This document shows positions 2-45,990 of a stretch of 64,000 bases of DNA, piece by piece. A model generated the notes under the pieces. It was given only the letters and a program-made list of their open reading frames with translations, made no database searches and had not been told where the DNA came from. The stretch is from contig JALAGF010006529.1 of assembly GCA_030167865.1 (NCBI GenBank), forward strand, positions 62,001 to 126,000. Direction: 5' to 3'. Source of the DNA: Craspedostauros australis. Its lineage: Eukaryota. Position 1 is the stretch's first letter. Each line of letters starts with the position of its first letter. The position numbers were made by a program, and so were the translations under genes.

Positions 2-3000
2 ATGATGCATCGCGCGCGCGATCTCTTCAAGGAGCGCTTTGTCCTCGGGAATCAGGGAGACTACGACAGCCAGCTCGGCTCTACCGGCTTCGTACCAGTA
101 GACGCAAAAGCAGACGCAACAACAGACAAGGAGGGAGAACAACGATCTGCCCAAAGTGTCGAACAAGCGGTGGTTGGACTCAACGCGGTCCCCCCGTTGG
201 TGAATGTTGCCGTACCCATGGAAAGCACAATCGATGCGTACGTTTCACCACCCATCGTTCCCACCGATTTGAAGAAGGAGCTCGTCGATGAAATGGCCCA
301 ACGATGCAACGACGGTTTCATCGTGACCGAGCTTGTGCAGATTGCAGACCTCGACAGCAACTTCCGGGCTGCCTTGAACAATGCCTTCCTTGTGTGCGCC
401 ATCGACCCACGCAAGCTGCCATTCCTCAAGCGCCATCTCGACTCGTCCGTTGTGGAGCTGGAGGGCGGCGGGCGAGGCAAGATGACCGCCAGCACTCAGC
501 TGACGCTCTTCTTGGAACTCTTCGCATTCTCTGACATGCACGGCGTGACACCGAACCACCGTGTGCGTGAAATCGCCATCCACATTGCGAATACCTTCTT
601 TCTGCCGACCAAGGTCGATGATGAGCTGCAGCCGCCCGTCTTTGACTTCCATCACATCGTCCCGGACTCTTCGTTGCGGCATTTGGAGTTCGTTCTGAGC
701 GGGAACAGCCAGAACATTCCGCGCGATGCCTTCCTCGATTTCCAAAAAGCCATCGTGGAGTCCTTGGTGGGCATCCCCTTCCTCTCATTCCTAATGTCTG
801 CCGAATGCGCCCGTATGCGGGGGTACTTACGCAGCACTGCGCCACACATCAACCTGCCGCTGCACTCCATCGTGCACAACTCGGATGCTCGGTCCACGGA
901 CGCCAACGCCAAGAACTCATTCGCTTATATCCTGGTCTACCTTTTATGTCAGCTTGAGAAAGATGGCATCGGTGACAACGGTCTCTTCTCTGCCGAGGGA
1001 AATCGTCACTTCGGAGCAGCAAGCGGATTGTGCTGCGTGCTGTTCATCCGCGGCGTTCTCCTCCCAGCATTGGAAGATGCACGAAAAGCGAATTCCAAGC
1101 TGGCAACCAGCAAGCCAACCTCCGGTGCAAAGCAAGCAGAAACAGATGCAAACCCTTCGTCAACCAATGGCGGCAACGATGGCAACGATCAAAGCAATGG
1201 GAAAGCGCAAGTCGATGACGAGGGCATTGAGCAAACCTGGATTCATCTCAAGGACGTGTTCGAACGATTGTGGGAAGCCTTCATTTCTCCTCAAGTTGGT
1301 TCGCTCCAAATGCTCAAGGCAGCAAATGAAACAGAGACGGCGCTCAAGATTGTGCAGAAGATTCTCACCGATATATCCACAATGAACACAACCACGGGAA
1401 GCTCGCAACCAGCCAGCTCCAAAAATTCCAAGCAGGGCCAAGAGCAGGTGCCTCAAAACCTGCTCACTGCGTTGCTGGACAAGAGCCTCGAAAATGCCAT
1501 CGTGCGTCTGTCCGAGGAACTCCTGTACGACTACGCCGCGAACACGCACGTCAAGTTCAAGGAGCACAAGTTTTACGAGCTGATGTGCAGCGAGCTTTGC
1601 AAGAGGCGTGTGGTTGGTTCGACTCACGTGCACAAGCAGGAGCTGCAAACGTTCCCGCAGGGATCCATCAAGCGATTGCTCCGGAAGGTCGAGCTTCCCG
1701 TTGGGATATCCTCGCACAAGCCATCCTACGCCTTCGCGGGTGCAGGCAAAGGTGTGGGTGCGAGTGCAGGCGCAAGCGCAAGCAAGTCGATGTCAGGCAC
1801 ATCTTCTCGCAATGTTCCGGACGAGACGCAAAGGCCAAAGACTGCCGAATTCGCGATCGTCTTTGGGTCGGCCGATGCGCAGAGGCGATCCGAACTTCCA
1901 GCGATTGCAGGCATGGAGCATTCGAATGCAAGACGATTCGCTGGCCTCCAGCTTGGAGCATCCTCGGACGATGGCACAGGAGCGCTGGACAGCGCCGTCG
2001 TGCCGGACACCTTTGAGAACTACGCCGTCGTCCCACAACCAAAACGGCGCCATTTCTTCAACCAAAGCCCAGATGCGATCGTCAGCAAAGACGGGTGGTC
2101 TGTGTCGTTGGTGAACTTCATCATTCCCAACAATGACAGCGGGGAGGGTGATCCCACCGAGTCTGCACTGTTTGGAGTCTCTCTCGTCTTCCACAAAGTG
2201 GGTGACGGTAGGAAACTTCACGATGACGATGGTCGTGATCGGACACCAATCGAAGTGCTCACCAGAGATGATGCCGGGGCTCCATCGGTGATTCAATCGA
2301 ATAACGATGACACAGCGATGTCCTCCGGTGTGGGCGACGTCACAGATGGCAAAGTGACTGCGTCAGAAGATGGCGAAGACAAGCAAGCTTCTTCTCCACA
2401 GCCCAAGCCCACCCAGGAAGAAGGTGCAGATATCAAAGATGAAAAGAAACAAGCCGTTGTTAACAACACCGGCAAGGACGATGCCGTGGTTGACAATGGC
2501 GACACTGGCACTGGCGCTGGCACTAGTGCTGATAAGAACGATGACAAGAACAATGACAAGACTGACGATCAGAGAGATGATGGCACTGACAAAGCAAGTT
2601 CCACAAAGCCTTCAGAGACCATCCCCGACGCTGCTGTGATCGGAACTAGCGAAACAGCTAAATCAAGTGCGGAAAACGCTGACGCAACTGCGGATGCATC
2701 GATAGGAGAGCATACAGAGACTCCGGGTGCAAAGAAGTCAACCACAGTAGAAATGGACGCAACTGCAACAGTGGAAGGTTCAACTTTCGAGGTTTGCTTC
2801 AAAGCCTCGGAGGGGCAGGCTGCTGATCATGCTGCAAGTGAGCAGACTTCATCCAGTGGGATACTGCAGCTCCGGCTGCCAATGCAGGCGCCGGTGTTCA
2901 AGGCAGAAGTAGAGGGGCATTCGTGGATCACTTCCATCTTGGACGATTACGATGACGATGACGATCACTTTGACGGCGGGGACGAAAGCAATTCCAACGA

Positions 3001-4288
3001 TGGTGATGACGTCAATGAAGTTGATCCAAAAGTTGACCAAGAACAGGACGGTGTCGACTCACAAGTTTCAGAAGAGAAGCCCGATGGGACGATCCTGGTC
3101 GGTCTCGCCTTGGCGTGTCGGCAAAACACGGTCATTTCCATGAGGGATGTACTATCGAAGCTGATTCAAGACTTCTCCGACCATTGCGTTTCGGACGGCG
3201 GCGCGGCCAATCCATCCAACCCACAATCGCTGCGTTGCTCGCCATTGGTGGATGCCTTGGGAGCTTTTGCGAACCAAGAAGTCGAGGTCGGTGCGTTGAA
3301 TGCCATTCTGCAACCCTACCTCAGCTTGGCGTCGTCGCCATGGCAGGAACGCCCGATCGGGGCCCAAAAGGAAGAGTTCGAGTTGCAATCGGTGCGGAGG
3401 ATGACAGAATGCCTCCCGCCAACCCCGCTGGCGCTGATGTTCGTCACAGCCTTGCTCGAGCAGAAGATCGTTCTGTCATCAACCCGTCGCAGCGCGCTTC
3501 ATTCTGTCGCAACCGGCCTCGCGACCATCCTGCGCCCGCTCAAGTGGGGTCATCTACTGGCTCCGCTGGTTCCTGCGAGCATCGCCACCGACCTCATCCA
3601 GTATCCCGCACCCTTCATCCTGGGCGTTTGTTCCGAAGACGCGGAGAGCGCCAGTTTGCTTGCAGACCTCCCCAGCGACGTCACGTTGGTCGATCTGGAC
3701 GTTGGAAGGGTGATCTTGGCCCCATCGTTCGGTCGTGACAACGAGATGGTCACTAAGTCCGCAAATGCCGAAGCGACCATGAAAGCGCTTCGATCGCAGA
3801 CCCTGTACTTGGCACAATCCCTCGGGTACGTGTTTGGCTCATGCATCTCGCCGGATTCGTGGAATTGCGACGCTGTGACTTTTGGCGCATCGCCGTCGCT
3901 GATAGGTTCGACAGACGGAGCTCGCGGTGCCAACCCTACTGGCCATCCAAACGGGGCGTGCAAGAACTTCATCCAGACAGTGCGATCGTTCATCGACGAA
4001 TTGTTGGCGGGGTCTGAATCGTGCTCGTACTGGGTCCAGGAAGCATCCGCCGTTGGGATGGGCGGCACTTCCGGGGACGAAGCCACTGTGCTGTTTGACG
4101 AAGATCGTTTCTTCCACATTAAGAACTTCCGCAGCCAGAAGGACAGCCATCGTCTCTTTGACAAGACCACGTCGAGTTTGGCTCTCAAGGTGGACGACTT
4201 TGACTTGATCTTGGAAAGTCTGCTGCGCTGCCAATCGATCAGCACGTACGTCAGTTCCAGACCGAAGGAGACAATGATCTACCATTAG
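2..4288 (+). CDS. RGS-like domain + DENN domain protein (Rab GEF family), probably 5'-truncated by the window edge
   Basis: 1428-aa ORF. The C-terminal cDENN motifs are ALLEQKIVLSS, LRPLKWGHLLAPLVP, YPAPFILGV and DVTLVDLD. The N-terminal segment LFLELFAF...IAIHIANTFF...AFLDFQKAIVESL...FLSFLMS fits an RGS helical bundle. Confidence 0.8.
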   Translation: MMHRARDLFKERFVLGNQGDYDSQLGSTGFVPVDAKADATTDKEGEQRSAQSVEQAVVGLNAVPPLVNVAVPMESTIDAYVSPPIVPTDLKKELVDEMAQRCNDGFIVTELVQIADLDSNFRAALNNAFLVCAIDPRKLPFLKRHLDSSVVELEGGGRGKMTASTQLTLFLELFAFSDMHGVTPNHRVREIAIHIANTFFLPTKVDDELQPPVFDFHHIVPDSSLRHLEFVLSGNSQNIPRDAFLDFQKAIVESLVGIPFLSFLMSAECARMRGYLRSTAPHINLPLHSIVHNSDARSTDANAKNSFAYILVYLLCQLEKDGIGDNGLFSAEGNRHFGAASGLCCVLFIRGVLLPALEDARKANSKLATSKPTSGAKQAETDANPSSTNGGNDGNDQSNGKAQVDDEGIEQTWIHLKDVFERLWEAFISPQVGSLQMLKAANETETALKIVQKILTDISTMNTTTGSSQPASSKNSKQGQEQVPQNLLTALLDKSLENAIVRLSEELLYDYAANTHVKFKEHKFYELMCSELCKRRVVGSTHVHKQELQTFPQGSIKRLLRKVELPVGISSHKPSYAFAGAGKGVGASAGASASKSMSGTSSRNVPDETQRPKTAEFAIVFGSADAQRRSELPAIAGMEHSNARRFAGLQLGASSDDGTGALDSAVVPDTFENYAVVPQPKRRHFFNQSPDAIVSKDGWSVSLVNFIIPNNDSGEGDPTESALFGVSLVFHKVGDGRKLHDDDGRDRTPIEVLTRDDAGAPSVIQSNNDDTAMSSGVGDVTDGKVTASEDGEDKQASSPQPKPTQEEGADIKDEKKQAVVNNTGKDDAVVDNGDTGTGAGTSADKNDDKNNDKTDDQRDDGTDKASSTKPSETIPDAAVIGTSETAKSSAENADATADASIGEHTETPGAKKSTTVEMDATATVEGSTFEVCFKASEGQAADHAASEQTSSSGILQLRLPMQAPVFKAEVEGHSWITSILDDYDDDDDHFDGGDESNSNDGDDVNEVDPKVDQEQDGVDSQVSEEKPDGTILVGLALACRQNTVISMRDVLSKLIQDFSDHCVSDGGAANPSNPQSLRCSPLVDALGAFANQEVEVGALNAILQPYLSLASSPWQERPIGAQKEEFELQSVRRMTECLPPTPLALMFVTALLEQKIVLSSTRRSALHSVATGLATILRPLKWGHLLAPLVPASIATDLIQYPAPFILGVCSEDAESASLLADLPSDVTLVDLDVGRVILAPSFGRDNEMVTKSANAEATMKALRSQTLYLAQSLGYVFGSCISPDSWNCDAVTFGASPSLIGSTDGARGANPTGHPNGACKNFIQTVRSFIDELLAGSESCSYWVQEASAVGMGGTSGDEATVLFDEDRFFHIKNFRSQKDSHRLFDKTTSSLALKVDDFDLILESLLRCQSISTYVSSRPKETMIYH

Positions 4289-39605: not shown

Positions 39606-41625
39606 TGCCAACCCTGTTGACATCGCATCCACAAAGGGAGGCTGGCAGAGAGAAAGAGCGATAAAGGGAGACAGTGGATGAATGCAAGGGGCACATGCCT
39701 GCGTGGAAGCGGCAGCAACTCATCTTGACGAACAAGAAGCCCGCGTAGCTCACGACCGCCTCCCCTGTGCAAGCCAGGCAACCATTGCGGCCACGATGGC
39801 AACACAGCAACAGATATGCTGACGCATGAGGCAGAGGCATCACAAAGCCAACGAAAGAAAGGACAACACAACTAAAGCCGAAGAAATGCATGTACAGAAA
39901 CGAGAAACACACCACAAAAGACGAACAAAACAAACAAAAAGAAAGCAAAGACAAAGAAAAACAGAACAAAACAAGACAAGGAAGACCCACCCGATCCCAT
40001 TCTTCCGCTCCCTTCTGTCAGGATGCACCATCATCGATGATGAACATCGGTCGCGCGGGCGTCAATGACGATTGGAGCGTGGGGATGGCAGAAAAACGAT
40101 CGGAAAGAAGGGAAAGACAAGGATAAACATGAATGTAGTAGTTACGTTGTGCATATTGTAGAATATGGTACTCTGCTCTACTCTACCTGATGAAGTGTAA
40201 TATTATGCACGATACTCCATGCATCGCCCACCATTGCGTATCATGCACGCACATTCTTGCACGAAGAGCAGTGCGAGTGAAGTACAGCACTGTGGAGGAG
40301 CCTCGGGTACTGCAGGAGCACTTGCGATTATGAGTGTGGTGGTGGTGGTGTACGTAGTATTAGTCCATGGCTCGTGCTCTGGAGTTGTGATGATGGTGGT
40401 GGTGGTGGTGGCGCTGATGATGGCGGAGAATGATCGCCAAAGGAGGCAAAGGTCGTAGGTACAGCACAGAGCCAAGCCCATCACCTCAATCCGTCACGCA
40501 GCATTCCACCAACCAACCGGCTTCCGCACTGTTCGATCCGGGCGTCATCTGCGCTGACACGAGCATGTGAAAACACAAATGGTGCGGTGGCTGAAGGCGA
40601 TGCTGAGAAGTGGAGGTGAGCAGAGAGAGAGACCATGATGTTGCCTCTGTTGTGCATGGACGCATGATGCTGTTGCGGAGTTGTGACTTCGTGACTTGGC
40701 ACATCCGTGAAGGCAAGGTGCCTTGTGCCCATGTGCCTTGTGGCGAAAGAATTAGTCTCCCTGAATCGTGGAAGATGAGGCAAGCTCAGTCCCGCCAAAT
40801 TGAAAGCGACCGAAAACGTGGTTGTCTGTTTTGGTCTTGCATCGCCACCGTGGAGGAGTACGAGTGGTTCGGGTAGAAAGTCTCGAAGGTTAAAAGTGGC
40901 CCAACGCGGTTGTTTCGGAAGGACCAACGACCCAGTGAGTTTTCTGCGTCTCACGAGCCAAGACTGCAGCAAGGCGGCGGTGGTGGTGATTGCTGAGGAT
41001 GTCCGATGGAAATACGGAATTCGCAACGACATCTTGTACGGGCCGGGTTGAGCCAAACCCGTAACACGGATACGAGCCAATTCGCCCCTTGTGATTGTGC
41101 TCGTTTGCACGCGGAGAGGCGTGGCTGCGTGCACGAGGAGTTGGAAGGTTTTGGTACTCCGCACAAGAACGACACAACACTGTGGACGACCGCAACAGCA
41201 TCATCAACAGCATAGTCAACACCATCACTGCTCTGCAACCTACCTTGATACACCCTGCACGATTGGTGCATCAACAGTACTATACGCCCGTAGGAGTCGC
41301 CACAACACTCGCAGTCAACCACAGTGAATCGCTGTACGTGCATAGATACGAAGAGCATCACCGGCAAGACCAGGAGGAGCAAGAGCAAGAAGAGAGCATC
41401 AACAAGCACTCCCGCTGCGCTGTTCCGTTCCAAGACCAACAGGTTTGGCAGGTTTGGCAGGTTTGGCAGGTACACAGCCCCGTTCCTGCATTTACCCGGG
41501 CCTTTCATGCATAGCGCCGTCCAAGGGACCTGAGCAACTGAGCAACTGAACAACTGAGCATCACACGGAGCACAACCCAGACCAACAGCACAACACCACA
41601 ATACTTAGTATACGATCTATCGCAG

Positions 41626-43371
41626 TTGGAAGACACTTGGAAGACAGCAGAGATGAGGCTGGGAAAGACAAGGCTCTCCAAGGAGGAGAAGCTGAAGGCC
41701 GAAGAGCTGAAGCGCCAAGAGGAGAAGCTGCAGCGCCAAAAGGGAGTCGAAGATGAGTGGATGGACTCCAGCATCACCTTCTACGAGACCATGGGGCAGT
41801 CCTTCACGTCCGTGGCTTCCTCCGTCACGTCTCCGCCTTCCTACTCCGGCATTGCGTTTGCCAAGTACCTCCAAGGGGGCGGCTCCTTCTCGGAGGGCGG
41901 CAGCAACGACAACAGCGCGGCGTCCTCCGGTGCTTCGCAGCATCAGTGGGAGGAAGGCAGCGGCGGAGGCAGCGCAGTTGGCGGTGGGGCCTCGACCTCT
42001 GGTGGATCAACCGTGTCATCCGCAGATCGGGACACCGAGCATCTGCGTGGCAACGCCCATGCTGGCACAACCACAAGCATGAGCACAAACATGAGCACAG
42101 GCGCGAGCGTGGCCTCTGACCAGAGCTCCAAGAAGAGCAAAAAGAAGAAGAAGATGAAGAAGAAGCTCAAGAAGCTGGTCAAGCGCAGCAACCGTCGCAG
42201 CGGCTTCTTCGGCTCCATCTCGGAAGAGGAGGGGGACATCGACGTCCACACCGCGGAATCGACCCTGGCTGATGAATCGGCCGCCAAGGAATCCACGCAC
42301 GGCAAGCCACCCATGCAACAACGCAGAAGGCGACGCAGCCTCTTCGGCAACATGGGGGGCTCTTCCAGCGCGGCGGAGGCGGCCACTTCTGCCGAATCAG
42401 ACGTCGATCATGCCGCGATCGATGCGATGCATGCGGGCAATCGCAGCGTCCACAGCAATCAGTCGCGTTCCGTCGACTCGCTCTCTGGTCGGCAACGTGC
42501 GGACTCCACTTCCTCCGTGGGGAACAAGTCGCAGGACGACGATAGCTCTGCTGCGCGTGAGAGGGGCAGCCAGACACGAAAGGCGGGAAAGCCCCGTCGA
42601 CGACGCAGCCTCTTCGGTTCCGTCGGTGGCGGTGGCGGCGGTGGTGGAAGCAAGTCCGATTTGCGGGACAAGGAAGCCCCCTTGTCGTCGACGACCCACC
42701 ATCATGAACAACGTCCAAAGCACCGTCCGGTCCGAAGAAGGAGTTTGTTTGGTGGCGTGGGAGGTCGTTCCGACAATCACGGCGAGGGAGCTGCCAACGG
42801 CATCAAGAAAAAGGAGAAGAACAAGAGCAAGGGCGATGTGGAGGATGGCGCATCCGCGGCAACCAGAGACGCCAGCGAACATGCCGAAGCCAAGCACTCG
42901 TCCAAATCCAGCAGAAGGAGGCGAAGGCACTCCATTTCTGGAACGTCCTCCTCCAACCTTGGGATGGCCAGCACCTCGCACACGTTCAACGGCATCGACG
43001 ATACCAAAAGCAACCTCGAAGCCCTGCGTTGCCTCACGGCCGACATCCACCGCGTCGTCAATCAGGAGCGCGTGCTGCGCAAGATGCAGCCGTTCTCGCG
43101 CAACGTCATCCTCGACGCGATGGCGTCCGACGTCGCCTACCAGCTGGCGAGCACGCAGGGCCAGTCGGCGGCCACGTCGCACAACATACAGTACCATGGC
43201 AACATCGGCCAGGGCACGTCGCTGGATCACATCCACGCCACCATGATGAAGGATCTCACGGGCACGGCTCGCAAGAACATCCTCAGCTCACGATTCACGC
43301 AGTTCGGAATGGCACTCACCAAGGGCATGCACGATGACAAGATGTACCTCTGTCAGCTCTTCAAACAGTGA
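41626..43371 (+). CDS. Disordered protein with C-terminal CAP/SCP domain, paralog 3 (5' end uncertain)
   Basis: C-terminus: VVNQERVLRKMQPFSRNVILDAMA...GNIGQG...ARKNILSSRFTQFGMALTKG...MYLCQLF. The ORF begins right after a CAG (possible acceptor, 41623-41625); the first ATG is at 41653. Confidence 0.75.
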   Translation: MEDTWKTAEMRLGKTRLSKEEKLKAEELKRQEEKLQRQKGVEDEWMDSSITFYETMGQSFTSVASSVTSPPSYSGIAFAKYLQGGGSFSEGGSNDNSAASSGASQHQWEEGSGGGSAVGGGASTSGGSTVSSADRDTEHLRGNAHAGTTTSMSTNMSTGASVASDQSSKKSKKKKKMKKKLKKLVKRSNRRSGFFGSISEEEGDIDVHTAESTLADESAAKESTHGKPPMQQRRRRRSLFGNMGGSSSAAEAATSAESDVDHAAIDAMHAGNRSVHSNQSRSVDSLSGRQRADSTSSVGNKSQDDDSSAARERGSQTRKAGKPRRRRSLFGSVGGGGGGGGSKSDLRDKEAPLSSTTHHHEQRPKHRPVRRRSLFGGVGGRSDNHGEGAANGIKKKEKNKSKGDVEDGASAATRDASEHAEAKHSSKSSRRRRRHSISGTSSSNLGMASTSHTFNGIDDTKSNLEALRCLTADIHRVVNQERVLRKMQPFSRNVILDAMASDVAYQLASTQGQSAATSHNIQYHGNIGQGTSLDHIHATMMKDLTGTARKNILSSRFTQFGMALTKGMHDDKMYLCQLFKQ

Positions 43372-43906
43372 CTGTACTTGGAGTGTAGTAGTCATGTATT
43401 ATACTATGGTAGTCCAATAGGGAGTCCAGTAGGCAGTCAGGCACTTAGTCAGTTAGTTAGTCAGTTGCATACCCAGTATACTCTACAGTGTTGTAGCTCA
43501 TGTCTATACCATAGATGCGCTGTCTCTCTCCACATACGACTACACACGCAGAGTGATGTGGCGAGAGTCCCCTGATCCACAACAGCACAAGCACGCGTAG
43601 GCTGATCAAGCTCGCGCTTGTGTGGAGTGCTCATCTGATCCACAACGACACTTGCTTGTTTTGGGAGAGAGCGACGGCGTTTGCGATACTCGTACAGCAG
43701 CAGTAGTCCAAACACTGCAACGCACAACTCCAACCATGAACAGTGCTGTGTCTGGCACCACCACATGCAGGGGTTATCAATTGTGAAGAAAACGGGTTTG
43801 CTCTATAGTCGTTAGTTGTTGCTATGAGTAGTACGCCTCTCGGAACCCGCCTGCTCTCTGATCTAGTGTATGCCATCTTCCTGCTCTCCCCACTCATTGT
43901 CGTGTA

Positions 43907-43993
43907 CGTGCGCAAGGTGGAATCGAACCACTACGCCGCTAAGCGTCCACAGGTTTGAAGCCTGCACCCAGCACCAGCCAGGATCATGCACAC
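43907..43993 (-). tRNA. tRNA-Sec (selenocysteine tRNA, anticodon UCA)
   Basis: Minus strand reads GTGTGCATGATCCTGGCTGGTGCTGGGTGCAGGCTTCAAACCTGTGGACGCTTAGCGGCGTAGTGGTTCGATTCCACCTTGCGCACG. It folds as the eukaryotic 9/4 tRNA-Sec: 9-bp acceptor stem with a U-U mismatch, 6-bp D stem with a 4-nt loop, anticodon loop CTTCAAA, long variable arm, 4-bp T stem GTGG/CCAC and a G discriminator. Confidence 0.97.
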
Positions 43994-44059
43994 AAATGGA
44001 AAGCACGATGTCGTGAAGTACTCACAACGGTTCGTGCCTTCTCTACTCCTTTCCGTTGG

Positions 44060-44349
44060 TGTTCAGAGTAATCCCCGTTGAGTTGCGGACGCAGGTCCGT
44101 AACCAAGCATAACTTTGCTGTGACGGCGGCGAAGGGACAGCTCTCATGCTCTTGTCTCAGCAACAGATCGAGACCGTCGTCGCCAGAGTGTCGCCTCCAC
44201 CAGCTCCCGTTCCCGGGATGGCATTCTCTGCCGTTGCGTCCGGGGAATTTCTCCCAAGGAAGCCATGTTGGATCTGCCGAAGCAGGATCATGTGCTCTCG
44301 ATCACGTGGTGATGGAGCCTTCCTCGAGGCCGTTCTTGAACTCCGAACA
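44060..44349 (-). ncRNA. RMRP: RNase MRP RNA
   Basis: All core elements occur in order on the minus strand. P1 TGTTCGGAGT/ACTCTGAACA (44349-44340, 44069-44060); P2 TCAAG/CTTGG; P3 CTCGAGGAAG/CTTCCTTGGG with an inner C(UUCG)G hairpin; CR-I GAAATTCCCC (44251-44242); P8 GGCA-GAGAA-TGCC with the MRP-diagnostic GARAR loop; P9 CCCG-GGAA-CGGG; CR-IV AGTTA (44114-44110); P19 CGGAC/GTCCG; CR-V ACGGGGATTACT. Most wobble pairs read as G-U on this strand. Confidence 0.92.
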
Positions 44350-45111
44350 GGAGAAGTATGGGAAGAACGGAGGTGGTGGAGATGTGATGTGCGGATTGCC
44401 TCCAACCCTGGAATTGGTCTCGCTTTCGTGGCGCAAACGCGCGACAGCGACGGGCCAAAATGGTCTGCGAACAACGCAACACGCGCAATTTCACGTGTTC
44501 GGAGAAGAAGATTGCGTTGAACGCACTTCTCGTTTGCGAGAATGGTTTGGCATCAATGGTTGGCTGTCGCCATCTTCTGCGGTCGAATTGATCGAAAGTT
44601 TGTGTGGTGCAGAAGAAGAGGACCTTCTCAGAAAGTTGTTTGATTCACTCGAATGGAACGTTCCCGAGATCAGTTCGGATGGATCGAAAGTAGGGGTTCG
44701 AGTCACGTAATCTCGTGAACGGTCGTTCACCCACATTCGTGTTTTTGGCGCCAAAACTTCACAGGCATCTCCAGTCGTGGGTTTTGTCCTGGTCGCGAAA
44801 CAGGCTCGCGCAGCTTCAGCGGTTCGGGCGCAGCGGGAGATACGACTACTGCACAGTTGCGTTGCTCACGGAGCGCATACCATCCGAACTCTACTCGCAC
44901 GATGAGAGGATGGTGTTTCCTGCTCACAATTTCGCAACGATCCAACATCAGAGGCACCTTCATTGTGACTCTGACTGAGACAGCAACAGCAACGGCGACT
45001 GGAACAACGACATCAGATACAACAGATACGACAGATACGTCAAAGTTGCCCACTCTATTCCACTCTACTTCGCGCACACTCCTCCACACATCTCGCACAC
45101 ACTGTCACACC

Positions 45112-45990
45112 ATGCTCTCGAAACTGAAAGCGGCCATGGTCCCAGAGCTTTCGGGCAAGCAGCCAGAGGAGCATTGGAAGGAAGTGTCGTCGATCGAATC
45201 ACCATCACAAGAAGTTACTGACGAACAATGGAAGGGGTATCTGAGCAAGGACGAGTACGAAGTGCTGCGAAGGAAGGGGACGGAGGCGCCACATTCATCG
45301 ACGTACAACGGCCACATGCCAAAGAAAGGGCATTACGCGTGCCGAGCCTGCGGAAATGCGCTGTACTCGTATGAGAGCAAGTTCAAGGCACAGTGCGGTT
45401 GGCCAGCCTTTGGAGAGTTCTACGAAGGCAGCGTCGGCTTCCACCAGGACTACTCGCATCAAATGAGACGGTAAGACGAGAGCGCAGGCGTGTCGTTCGA
45501 TCGCATGACGCGAGAAGTGTTGCACCAGGTGTGCCATCCAGAGACTTTGCTGAGATGCTGCTCCAGACGAAGATGAGTGCGCTGGGTTGGTACGAGCACG
45601 GGTGGAGTATTGTGCACGAGCTATTGTTGGTATTCCATCACATCCTCTGGCGGGTCACTCACCCATGATTTCCCAACTGCTCCCACGGCACCATTCGAAT
45701 ACGGATACGCTTGGCAATTGCTAATTGCCAATTTCAAATGCATACGTCGACTCAATCAACAAACACTTTATGAAATGCTCCGGTCACTCCACATCCTGCG
45801 CCATACTTGTACGAGCAGAACAGAGATCATTTGCAATCGATGCCAGTCTCACTTGGGCCACGTATTTGCGGAGCGCAACCACACTGCCACCAAAACGTTC
45901 AATGAACGCCACTGCGTCAACGGTCTCTCCATCCGATACGTCAAGGCAGCGCCGGAGACGGAACGACAGTTGCAAACTCACTTGTCATGA
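45112..45990 (+). CDS. msrB: Peptide methionine-R-sulfoxide reductase MsrB (Zn-binding, Cys-type), 2 exons (45112-45470, 45819-45990)
   Basis: EYEVLRRKGTEAP, CRAC, KF..CGWPAF; GTAAGA donor at 45471 and CAG acceptor at 45816-45818 join to give RTEIICNRCQSHLGHVF...RHCVN. Confidence 0.93.

Follow-up and report, generated by a model that had tools for sequence, protein, structure and literature searches.

The window, that is, the whole 64-kb stretch of DNA analysed here, has two matches above the gathering score in an Rfam cmscan, one to RNase MRP RNA and one to tRNA-Sec, and both are on the minus strand. The RNase MRP RNA gene (RF00030) occupies positions 44056 to 44347 (292 nt) and matches the full model, positions 1-266, with 71.4 bits (E 7.8e-18) against a gathering cut-off of 50 bits. 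The tRNA-Sec gene (RF01852), with anticodon UCA, lies at 43907 to 43993 and also matches its full model, with 76.6 bits (E 5.5e-14) against a cut-off of 47 bits. Its ends are 43993-43908 according to cmscan, and ARAGORN, which finds no other tRNA in the 64 kb, reports tRNA-SeC(tca) at 43907-43993. A first-pass annotation, made from the letters of the sequence, had placed an MRP RNA at 44349-44060 and a tRNA-Sec at 43993-43907; both agree within 4 nt with the Rfam and ARAGORN ends, and the covariance models bear out the two identities. The spacer between the genes, given there as 66 nt, measures 62 nt by the Rfam ends (43994 to 44055, minus strand). It was correctly described as containing T3 runs at most, a T4 run being present nowhere between the two genes, and as devoid of TATA: no TATA-like motif occurs in the 60 nt upstream of the tRNA.

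Both RNAs have the secondary structure of their families. All tRNA-Sec stems align to RF01852, with a 9-bp acceptor stem, a 4-bp T stem, a 6-bp D stem and a long variable arm. In the MRP RNA, helices P1, P2 and P3 are formed, P4 (CR-I/CR-V) pairs as TCCCCG/CGGGGA, and the GGCA/UGCC stem of P8 is capped by a GAGAA loop in the cmscan alignment. This loop agrees with the GARAR loop on P8 that is given as a signature of MRP RNA in the accessible portion of PMC4287351. The presence of a genuine RNase MRP RNA gene and a genuine tRNA-Sec gene on one strand is thus confirmed; the identity of the former rests on the covariance model, P4 and the GARAR loop, and its assembly with Pop/Rpp proteins and its role in pre-rRNA cleavage are predicted.

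The pair sits between two plus-strand genes and is itself on the minus strand. On one side is a convergent gene encoding a protein with a C-terminal CAP domain (41542 to 43371, plus strand; PF00188, E 3.4e-5), and on the other a divergent two-exon MsrB/SelR gene of the Cys form (45112 to 45990, plus strand; PF01641, E 4e-20 and 9e-12). The MsrB/SelR gene has its ATG at 45112, 764 nt from the 5' end of the MRP RNA, and its intron begins with the 5' splice site GTAAGA at 45471. Regarding the source of the DNA, the named relatives of a PPR protein encoded in the window are all pennate diatoms. The best of them is an MMETSP entry ('Staur...') with 61% identity, and the others come from Epithemia, Nitzschia, Cylindrotheca, Pseudo-nitzschia, Fragilaria and Seminavis, which identifies the window as DNA of a pennate diatom that is without a near relation in the database searched.

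A spliced RNA contig across the two genes

Of 21 sequencing runs that share the stretch, only one, X1, contains more than 1/20 of the sampled words (0.59). X1 is probably an RNA run from the same species, its RNA label being a guess, and the comparison was carried out on positions 43300-45000. One X1 contig of 1064 nt (depth 47, no mismatches) follows the window from 44377 to 44026, resumes at 43751 and continues beyond 43300. The joint 43751/44026 omits 274 nt, the ends of which read CT..AC on the plus strand and GT..AG on the strand of the MRP RNA and the tRNA. The omitted piece (43752 to 44025, minus strand) has the features of a spliceosomal intron and holds the complete tRNA-Sec: GTGAGT at 44025-44020 forms the 5' splice site, and the AG at 43753-43752 is preceded by a T-rich tract and by CTAAC, a motif resembling a branch site. 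Since the MsrB intron in the same window starts with GTAAGA, the GTGAGT intron looks normal for this DNA, and it lies on the strand of both RNAs. The tRNA-Sec begins 32 nt past the 5' splice site and ends 155 nt short of the 3' splice site, embedded in a putative Pol II unit.

Exon 1 of the spliced RNA consists of a 30-nt leader, the entire MRP RNA and a 30-nt trailer. The leader (44348 to 44377, minus strand) is a candidate 5' leader or indicates a transcription start nearby, its outer limit being the start of the contig and not a mapped RNA end; the trailer (44026 to 44055, minus strand) is the part following the MRP RNA that is kept after splicing. Exon 2 takes up 43300 to 43751 (minus strand), with a further 260 nt of contig past 43300 and a 3' end that the contig leaves undefined. 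The 3' end of the convergent CAP gene is antisense over this exon, and the portion of the contig beyond 43300 may be merged with the CAP-gene mRNA. An ORF check of the joined sequence found no ATG-started ORF across the splice junction.

A spliced molecule of this kind implies that its precursor extended through both spacer and tRNA and for another 155 nt, and hence that there is read-through past the tRNA fold, as judged from one contig of a library whose type is guessed. The evidence of X1 comes from a single contig in a single run, and contigs carry neither strand, true ends nor abundance and may merge overlapping RNAs, so that the contig alone is no proof that the spliced molecule begins upstream of the MRP RNA. 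X1 has no cover over 44383-45000 or over the interior of the intron, gaps that carry no weight; neither the unspliced precursor nor cleavage at the tRNA is represented among the reads. Three other runs (X2, X3 and X4), compared at 80% likeness, contain short contigs of 96-399 nt from relatives, with flanks unlike those of the window; they span the tRNA or the MRP core and do not bear on the linkage of the two genes.

The tandem and ribosome-related neighbours in other diatom-like loci

Metagenome contigs were scanned with a tRNA-Sec pattern that includes the T arm, and 66 loci were obtained; a diatom-type tRNA-Sec pattern gave 0 matches in the genome contig collection and 0 in the viral contig collection. 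Fourteen of the 66 loci have a diatom-like tRNA-Sec, with the acceptor stem of the window and 77-80 of 87 nt identical, and their flanks divide them into seven locus types. Two of the seven types, comprising five of the 14 loci (L026 on the one hand, L027/L030/L042/L048 on the other), have an MRP RNA followed by the tRNA-Sec on one strand. In a permissive Rfam scan, full-length RNase_MRP matches were found in L027 (44.3 bits, E 8.8e-10) and L026 (43.5 bits, E 1.6e-9), below the cut-off of 50, and nhmmer and blastn searches with the MRP RNA of the window gave matches directly upstream of the tRNA in L026 and in all four loci of the L027 type. Rfam at gathering score reported no MRP RNA in 20 loci, which is a false negative for L026 and the L027 group. 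Among the other five diatom-like types, the permissive scan found no RNase_MRP at E <= 1, and no MRP RNA was present within the 965-1972 nt upstream of their tRNA-Sec genes; the same scan found none in 18 representatives of non-diatom tRNA-Sec types.

The 5' ends that Rfam assigned to the MRP RNAs of L026 and L027 are misplaced inwards by about 50-80 nt and were re-set by helix logic. P1 of these two RNAs differs in sequence from that of the window and is nevertheless paired, and the strands of P2, P3 and P4 pair within each RNA. P4 is TCCCCG/CGGGGG in both, and the P8-type loop is GAGAA in L026 and GAGAG in L027. With corrected ends, the spacers between MRP RNA and tRNA are 40 and 23 nt in the two tandem relatives, compared with 62 nt in the window. 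Neither the L026 nor the L027 spacer shares the GTGAGT splice site. Pairing between leader and trailer around the MRP RNA was also considered as a processing stem and was dropped: the -16.6 kcal/mol found in the window was reached by 137 of 500 shuffles, and the corresponding stems of the relatives by 15/500 (L026) and 10/500 (L027, where the stem is also weak).

An eS10 gene adjoins the MRP RNA gene in the tandem relatives, and its protein reaches 84% with Discostella, 81% with Thalassiosira profunda and 74-75% with pennates. On the strength of this protein, the tandem relatives are Thalassiosirales-like centric diatoms. The MsrB and CAP proteins of the window have no tblastn match in any of the 66 loci, so that the pennate and the centrics have only the RNA pair in common. 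The pair, which the first-pass annotation had seen at a single locus, recurs with its gene order and common strand unchanged in two of the seven other diatom-like locus types, and the tandem of MRP RNA and tRNA-Sec is conserved between pennate and centric diatoms next to unlike flanking genes.

The five types without MRP RNA differ in what lies upstream of the tRNA-Sec. In four of the five, the upstream neighbour on the same strand as the tRNA-Sec is a ribosomal-protein gene: eL8 in L024 and in L061/L065 (the eL8 of L061 being Thalassiosirales-like), uL30 in L014/L063 and eS19 in L007/L057. The distance from the stop codon of the ribosomal-protein gene to the tRNA-Sec is 253-306 nt in these four types. 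The upstream region of the fifth type, L018/L059, shows no Pfam or Rfam match and no recognisable host gene. As a control, ribosomal-protein families matched none of 104 ORFs (of at least 100 aa and within 1.3 kb of the tRNA-Sec) at 17 non-diatom loci. Overall, a ribosome-related gene lies directly upstream of the tRNA-Sec, on the same strand, in seven of the eight diatom-like types, the window included, which is a small set of independent loci. Siting on the same strand and immediately downstream in all seven is what a passenger gene needs, whereas an autonomous gene has no such need, and the tRNA-Sec genes of diatoms appear to be passengers that immediately follow Pol II genes with strong expression and a link to the ribosome. 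The coupling of rRNA-processing capacity to selenocysteine decoding that the first-pass annotation had proposed is weakened by this pattern, since tRNA-Sec is found behind ribosomal-protein genes as well, and also by the many tRNA-Sec copies reported for a diatom genome (table in the accessible part of PMC11842555).

Transcription signals and the origin of the two RNAs

From 44400 to 43300, the minus strand has a single run of four or more T, at 43792-43789; it lies 115 nt past the tRNA, in the pyrimidine tract of the intron, and thus no Pol III-type terminator adjoins the tRNA. With its first T4 at +115 and 60 nt of TATA-free sequence upstream, the gene in the window departs from type-3 Pol III tRNA-Sec genes. 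The other diatom-like loci are similar. A run of at least four T within 30 nt after the tRNA-Sec is found in none of the eight diatom-like types, window included, as opposed to 26 of the 33 other variants (Fisher p 6.7e-5), a comparison in which the 33 variants are non-independent, 13 of them coming from one family, and in which the yardstick is taken from other eukaryotic tRNA-Sec genes, while Pol III termination in diatoms may follow other rules. Between -36 and -24, a TATA-like motif is likewise present in none of the eight types versus 16 of these 33 variants (Fisher p 0.014). TTTATA occurs at -22 in L007/L057. No TATA was found upstream of the MRP RNA in the window, L026 or L027, and the 100 nt flanking the tRNA-Sec on each side contain no motif common to the eight loci, there being no 6-mer in at least five of them and no 7- or 8-mer in at least four.

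The MRP RNA genes add to this picture. MRP RNA of the L027 type contains three internal T4 runs and one T5, the T5 being T7 in L030 and L048, and internal runs of T4 to T7 are hard to square with transcription by Pol III. In L026, a T4 run begins 2 nt past the 3' strand of the MRP RNA, and a T6 run stands directly ahead of the tRNA. As for the internal promoter of the tRNA, the T arm is the same as in many other eukaryotic tRNA-Sec genes and shows no B-box deficiency; the T arm of the diatom-like tRNA presumably fits the Pol III B box. A conserved B box is expected of Pol III genes according to the available part of PMC2943599, and together with the B-box-like T arm this expectation leaves room for independent Pol III transcription of the tRNA.

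It could be that the two genes are independent, the tRNA-Sec recruiting Pol III through its internal promoter and the MRP RNA having a promoter and terminator of its own, that open chromatin alone keeps tRNA-Sec copies behind highly expressed, ribosome-related genes, and that the spliced RNA is a minor by-product of read-through. Besides the canonical T arm and the tie between B-box conservation and Pol III (PMC2943599, accessible part), this explanation can draw on the T4 and T6 runs of L026, which are possible Pol III terminators for the MRP RNA, on the TTTATA of L007/L057, on the splice site being unconserved in relatives, and on the read-through being derived from one contig. Open chromatin, however, leaves orientation and position unexplained, all seven identified neighbours among the eight types being upstream and on the same strand. 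The contrast in T runs within 30 nt of the tRNA (0/8 diatom-like types versus 26/33 elsewhere) and the absence of an upstream motif common to the loci also count against it, and the T4-T7 runs inside the L027-type RNA speak against Pol III for the MRP RNA. We regard independent transcription as rather unlikely, with an appreciable chance nonetheless.

The first-pass annotation had proposed a dicistronic precursor cut by RNase P, which, in the Pol III frame of that proposal, would start at the MRP promoter and run through the tRNA. One part of this proposal stands: the spliced contig and the conserved tandem make a single precursor covering the MRP RNA, the spacer and tRNA-Sec very probable. 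Its Pol III frame is not supported: splicing by the spliceosome and the T4-T7 runs within the MRP RNA of a relative point to Pol II instead. The spacer of the window is free of T4, as such a unit would require, and Pol III dicistrons are known elsewhere, for example the tRNA-5S units of Yarrowia (PMC2566860, in the portion available). Nevertheless, the read-through RNA has undergone GT-AG splicing, the spacer of L026 carries both T4 and T6, the first T run is 115 nt past the tRNA, TATA is lacking upstream of the MRP RNA in all three tandem loci considered, and the tRNA comes second with no close terminator behind it. A Pol III dicistron is consequently very improbable. Least credible of all is an adjacency by chance without function, or a joint in X1 that reflects a 274-bp genomic deletion allele: the RNA label of X1 is a guess and MRP RNA is missing from five of the seven related locus types, but a pennate and centrics have the tandem with identical gene order and strand, a spacer of 23-62 nt and unrelated flanks, and the skipped piece is bounded exactly by GT..AG, with GTGAGT on the gene strand.

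We lean towards a Pol II unit in which the MRP RNA leads and a promoter-less tRNA-Sec is carried as a passenger; RNase P and RNase Z would free the tRNA, and the MRP RNA would owe its end to the first of these two enzymes. Transcription by Pol II would start slightly upstream of the MRP RNA and extend past both the spacer of 62 nt and the tRNA-Sec. The tRNA-Sec, apparently with neither its own promoter nor its own terminator, would be supplied by this read-through RNA and released by RNase P at its 5' end and by RNase Z at its 3' end. The same RNase P cut would free the MRP RNA from the RNA downstream, and the short tail that is left (23-62 nt) would be trimmed by exonucleases. In this species, a competing fate would be the removal of the 274-nt GT-AG intron together with the tRNA, by which the MRP exon is joined to the downstream exon. 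The choice of Pol II over Pol III draws on spliceosomal splicing and on the internal T4-T7 runs in the MRP RNA of a relative; that polymerase, the cuts by RNase P and RNase Z, and the origin of the mature RNAs from this precursor are what we infer from the arrangement.

A wider reading joins all diatom-like loci, and we offer it tentatively, as possible rather than probable. It holds that diatoms have largely abandoned autonomous Pol III transcription of tRNA-Sec, which would be expressed only by Pol II read-through from the genes for MRP RNA, eL8, uL30 and eS19. The MRP RNA would use a genuine tRNA as the signal for its 3' end, RNase P thereby maturing the RNA of its sister enzyme, and the link would predate the split between pennate and centric diatoms.

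Known systems, copy number and significance

The proposed unit has partial counterparts in several lineages. Among them are vertebrate MALAT1/mascRNA and NEAT1/menRNA (PMC8457004, PMC4824109), in which an element with the shape of a tRNA stands behind a non-coding RNA made by Pol II, and its cleavage by RNase P creates the 3' end of that RNA; the diatom locus would be alike if the cut occurs. It differs in that the diatom element is a genuine, decodable tRNA-Sec at which cleavage is a deduction, and in its position 23-62 nt beyond the structural end of the MRP RNA, a gap that makes trimming necessary, unlike in MALAT1.

Trypanosomatids provide the precedent for the polymerase. The tRNA-Sec of T. 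brucei is transcribed by Pol II (PMC2943599, available part), and as in trypanosomatids, the diatom gene would lie inside a Pol II unit, has no external promoter of its own and varies in host locus between lineages. Such differences in host locus suggest repeated relocation of tRNA-Sec. The trypanosomatid units are, however, long protein-coding polycistrons with a tRNA deficient in the B box, as far as the same excerpt goes, whereas the diatom tRNA has a canonical T arm and stands behind single genes. In comparison with classical type-3 Pol III genes, represented by vertebrates and by most non-diatom loci in our set, the structure and the anticodon of the tRNA are the same; those genes have a TATA near -30 and a T run a few nt past the 3' end, and the diatom-like genes have neither.

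For the P/MRP family itself, the intronic RNase P RNA of insects and crustaceans is an example of an RNA without Pol III signals, dependent on Pol II, that moved as a passenger between hosts (PMC4287351, accessible portion). There the ribozyme RNA is the intronic passenger, whereas in the diatom the passenger would be the tRNA, with the MRP RNA in the first exon. The same source, in the portion available, describes MRP RNA as retaining Pol III signals in all animals examined. In yeast, the MRP RNA gene NME1 is transcribed by Pol II (PMC7277114, available part). The proposed diatom unit would resemble NME1 in the polymerase, the 3' end of NME1 being formed otherwise. To our knowledge, no tRNA lies downstream of yeast NME1.

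Dicistronic Pol III units of two small RNAs include the plant tRNA-snoRNA genes. They also include the tRNA-5S rRNA genes of Yarrowia (PMC2566860, in the accessible text). Like these, the diatom pair would yield two small RNAs from one precursor parted by tRNA-processing enzymes. In the plant and Yarrowia units, however, the tRNA comes first and provides the internal Pol III promoter, whereas the diatom tRNA is the second member of its pair, with Pol III terminators either missing or in the wrong place.

The number of tRNA-Sec genes bears on what the MRP-linked copy does. Predictions amount to 11 in Fragilariopsis (PMC5330540, available part), and the genome table of Thalassiosira rotula lists 20 tRNA-Sec and one RNase_MRP (PMC11842555, available part), from which it follows that the MRP-linked copy need not be the sole source of tRNA-Sec. 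Multi-copy tRNA-Sec fits several passenger copies per genome and weakens the notion that the tRNA-Sec supply is governed by MRP RNA only; a further suggestion from it is that maturation of the MRP RNA itself may be what the conserved copy beside MRP is for. In the openly accessible literature searched, we found no published description of a linkage between MRP RNA and tRNA-Sec or of tRNA-Sec behind ribosomal-protein genes.

If the Pol II unit is real, diatoms would be the second lineage, after trypanosomatids, with a Pol II-dependent nuclear tRNA, and this would be the first RNase MRP RNA in one transcription unit with a tRNA. The locus would then be a natural and ancient counterpart of MALAT1/mascRNA that employs a working tRNA. 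The supply of tRNA-Sec would be linked to the expression of genes for ribosome production, and the multiple, scattered tRNA-Sec genes of diatoms would be accounted for. Units of this kind, transcribed by Pol II and flanked by a tRNA, might serve as cassettes for the expression of small RNAs in diatom engineering. For genome annotation, rules that demand Pol III signals would misjudge the tRNA-Sec and MRP RNA genes of diatoms, and the Rfam cut-off for RNase_MRP overlooks the MRP RNAs of centric diatoms.

MRP RNA and eS10 in centric diatoms

Two Thalassiosirales-like centric-diatom loci that carry an MRP RNA followed by tRNA-Sec, L026 and L027, have their MRP RNAs at 1603-1932 and 2542-2099, respectively (locus coordinates). 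The Rfam RF00030 scores of these RNAs are 43.5-44.3 bits, below the cut-off of 50, and the model starts its matches 50-80 nt inside their 5' ends. Both would be overlooked by standard annotation. Each locus also has a gene for ribosomal protein eS10, at 754-1200 (-) in L026 and 2815-3315 (+) in L027. Because eS10 and the MRP RNA are head-to-head in both loci, with 347-435 nt between the eS10 ATG and the MRP 5' end, the arrangement suggests a bidirectional promoter region common to the two genes.

Genomic settings of tRNA-Sec

Among the Thalassiosirales-like and other diatom-like metagenome contigs, four locus types have tRNA-Sec downstream of a ribosomal-protein gene of the same strand, 253-306 nt past its stop codon. 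The upstream gene is eL8 in L024 and in L061/L065, uL30 in L014/L063, and eS19 in L007/L057. No flanking sequence is common to the tRNA-Sec copies of these four locus types. Between L024 and L061, a short block with GAGGGAGTGT is conserved 3' of eL8, at about 1130-1160 in L024 (about 115-145 nt past the eL8 stop codon) and about 1820-1850 in L061 (about 110-140 nt past it; oriented coordinates in both). Outside this block, the stretch between eL8 and tRNA-Sec has diverged. The setting in the non-diatom contigs L019 and L021 is quite different from that in diatoms: tRNA-Sec is part of an array in which about 25-30 tRNA genes are packed very densely across both strands, together with a 5S rRNA gene in L019 and a U6 gene in L021.

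Neighbours and spacer of the locus in the window

In the window, a methionine sulfoxide reductase B gene (SelR domain; 45112-45474 and 45577-45990, plus strand) is divergent from the MRP RNA. Members of the MsrB family are often selenoproteins, and the one adjoining this tRNA-Sec locus is a Cys form ('RHCVNG'). On the other side, the second exon of the spliced RNA that includes MRP (43300-43751) overlaps in antisense the 3' end of a convergent CAP-domain gene, and the X1 RNA contig may merge the transcripts of the two. The spacer between the MRP RNA and tRNA-Sec (44055-43994, minus strand) forms a hairpin enclosing the GTGAGT splice site in the predicted minimum-free-energy fold of spacer plus tRNA.
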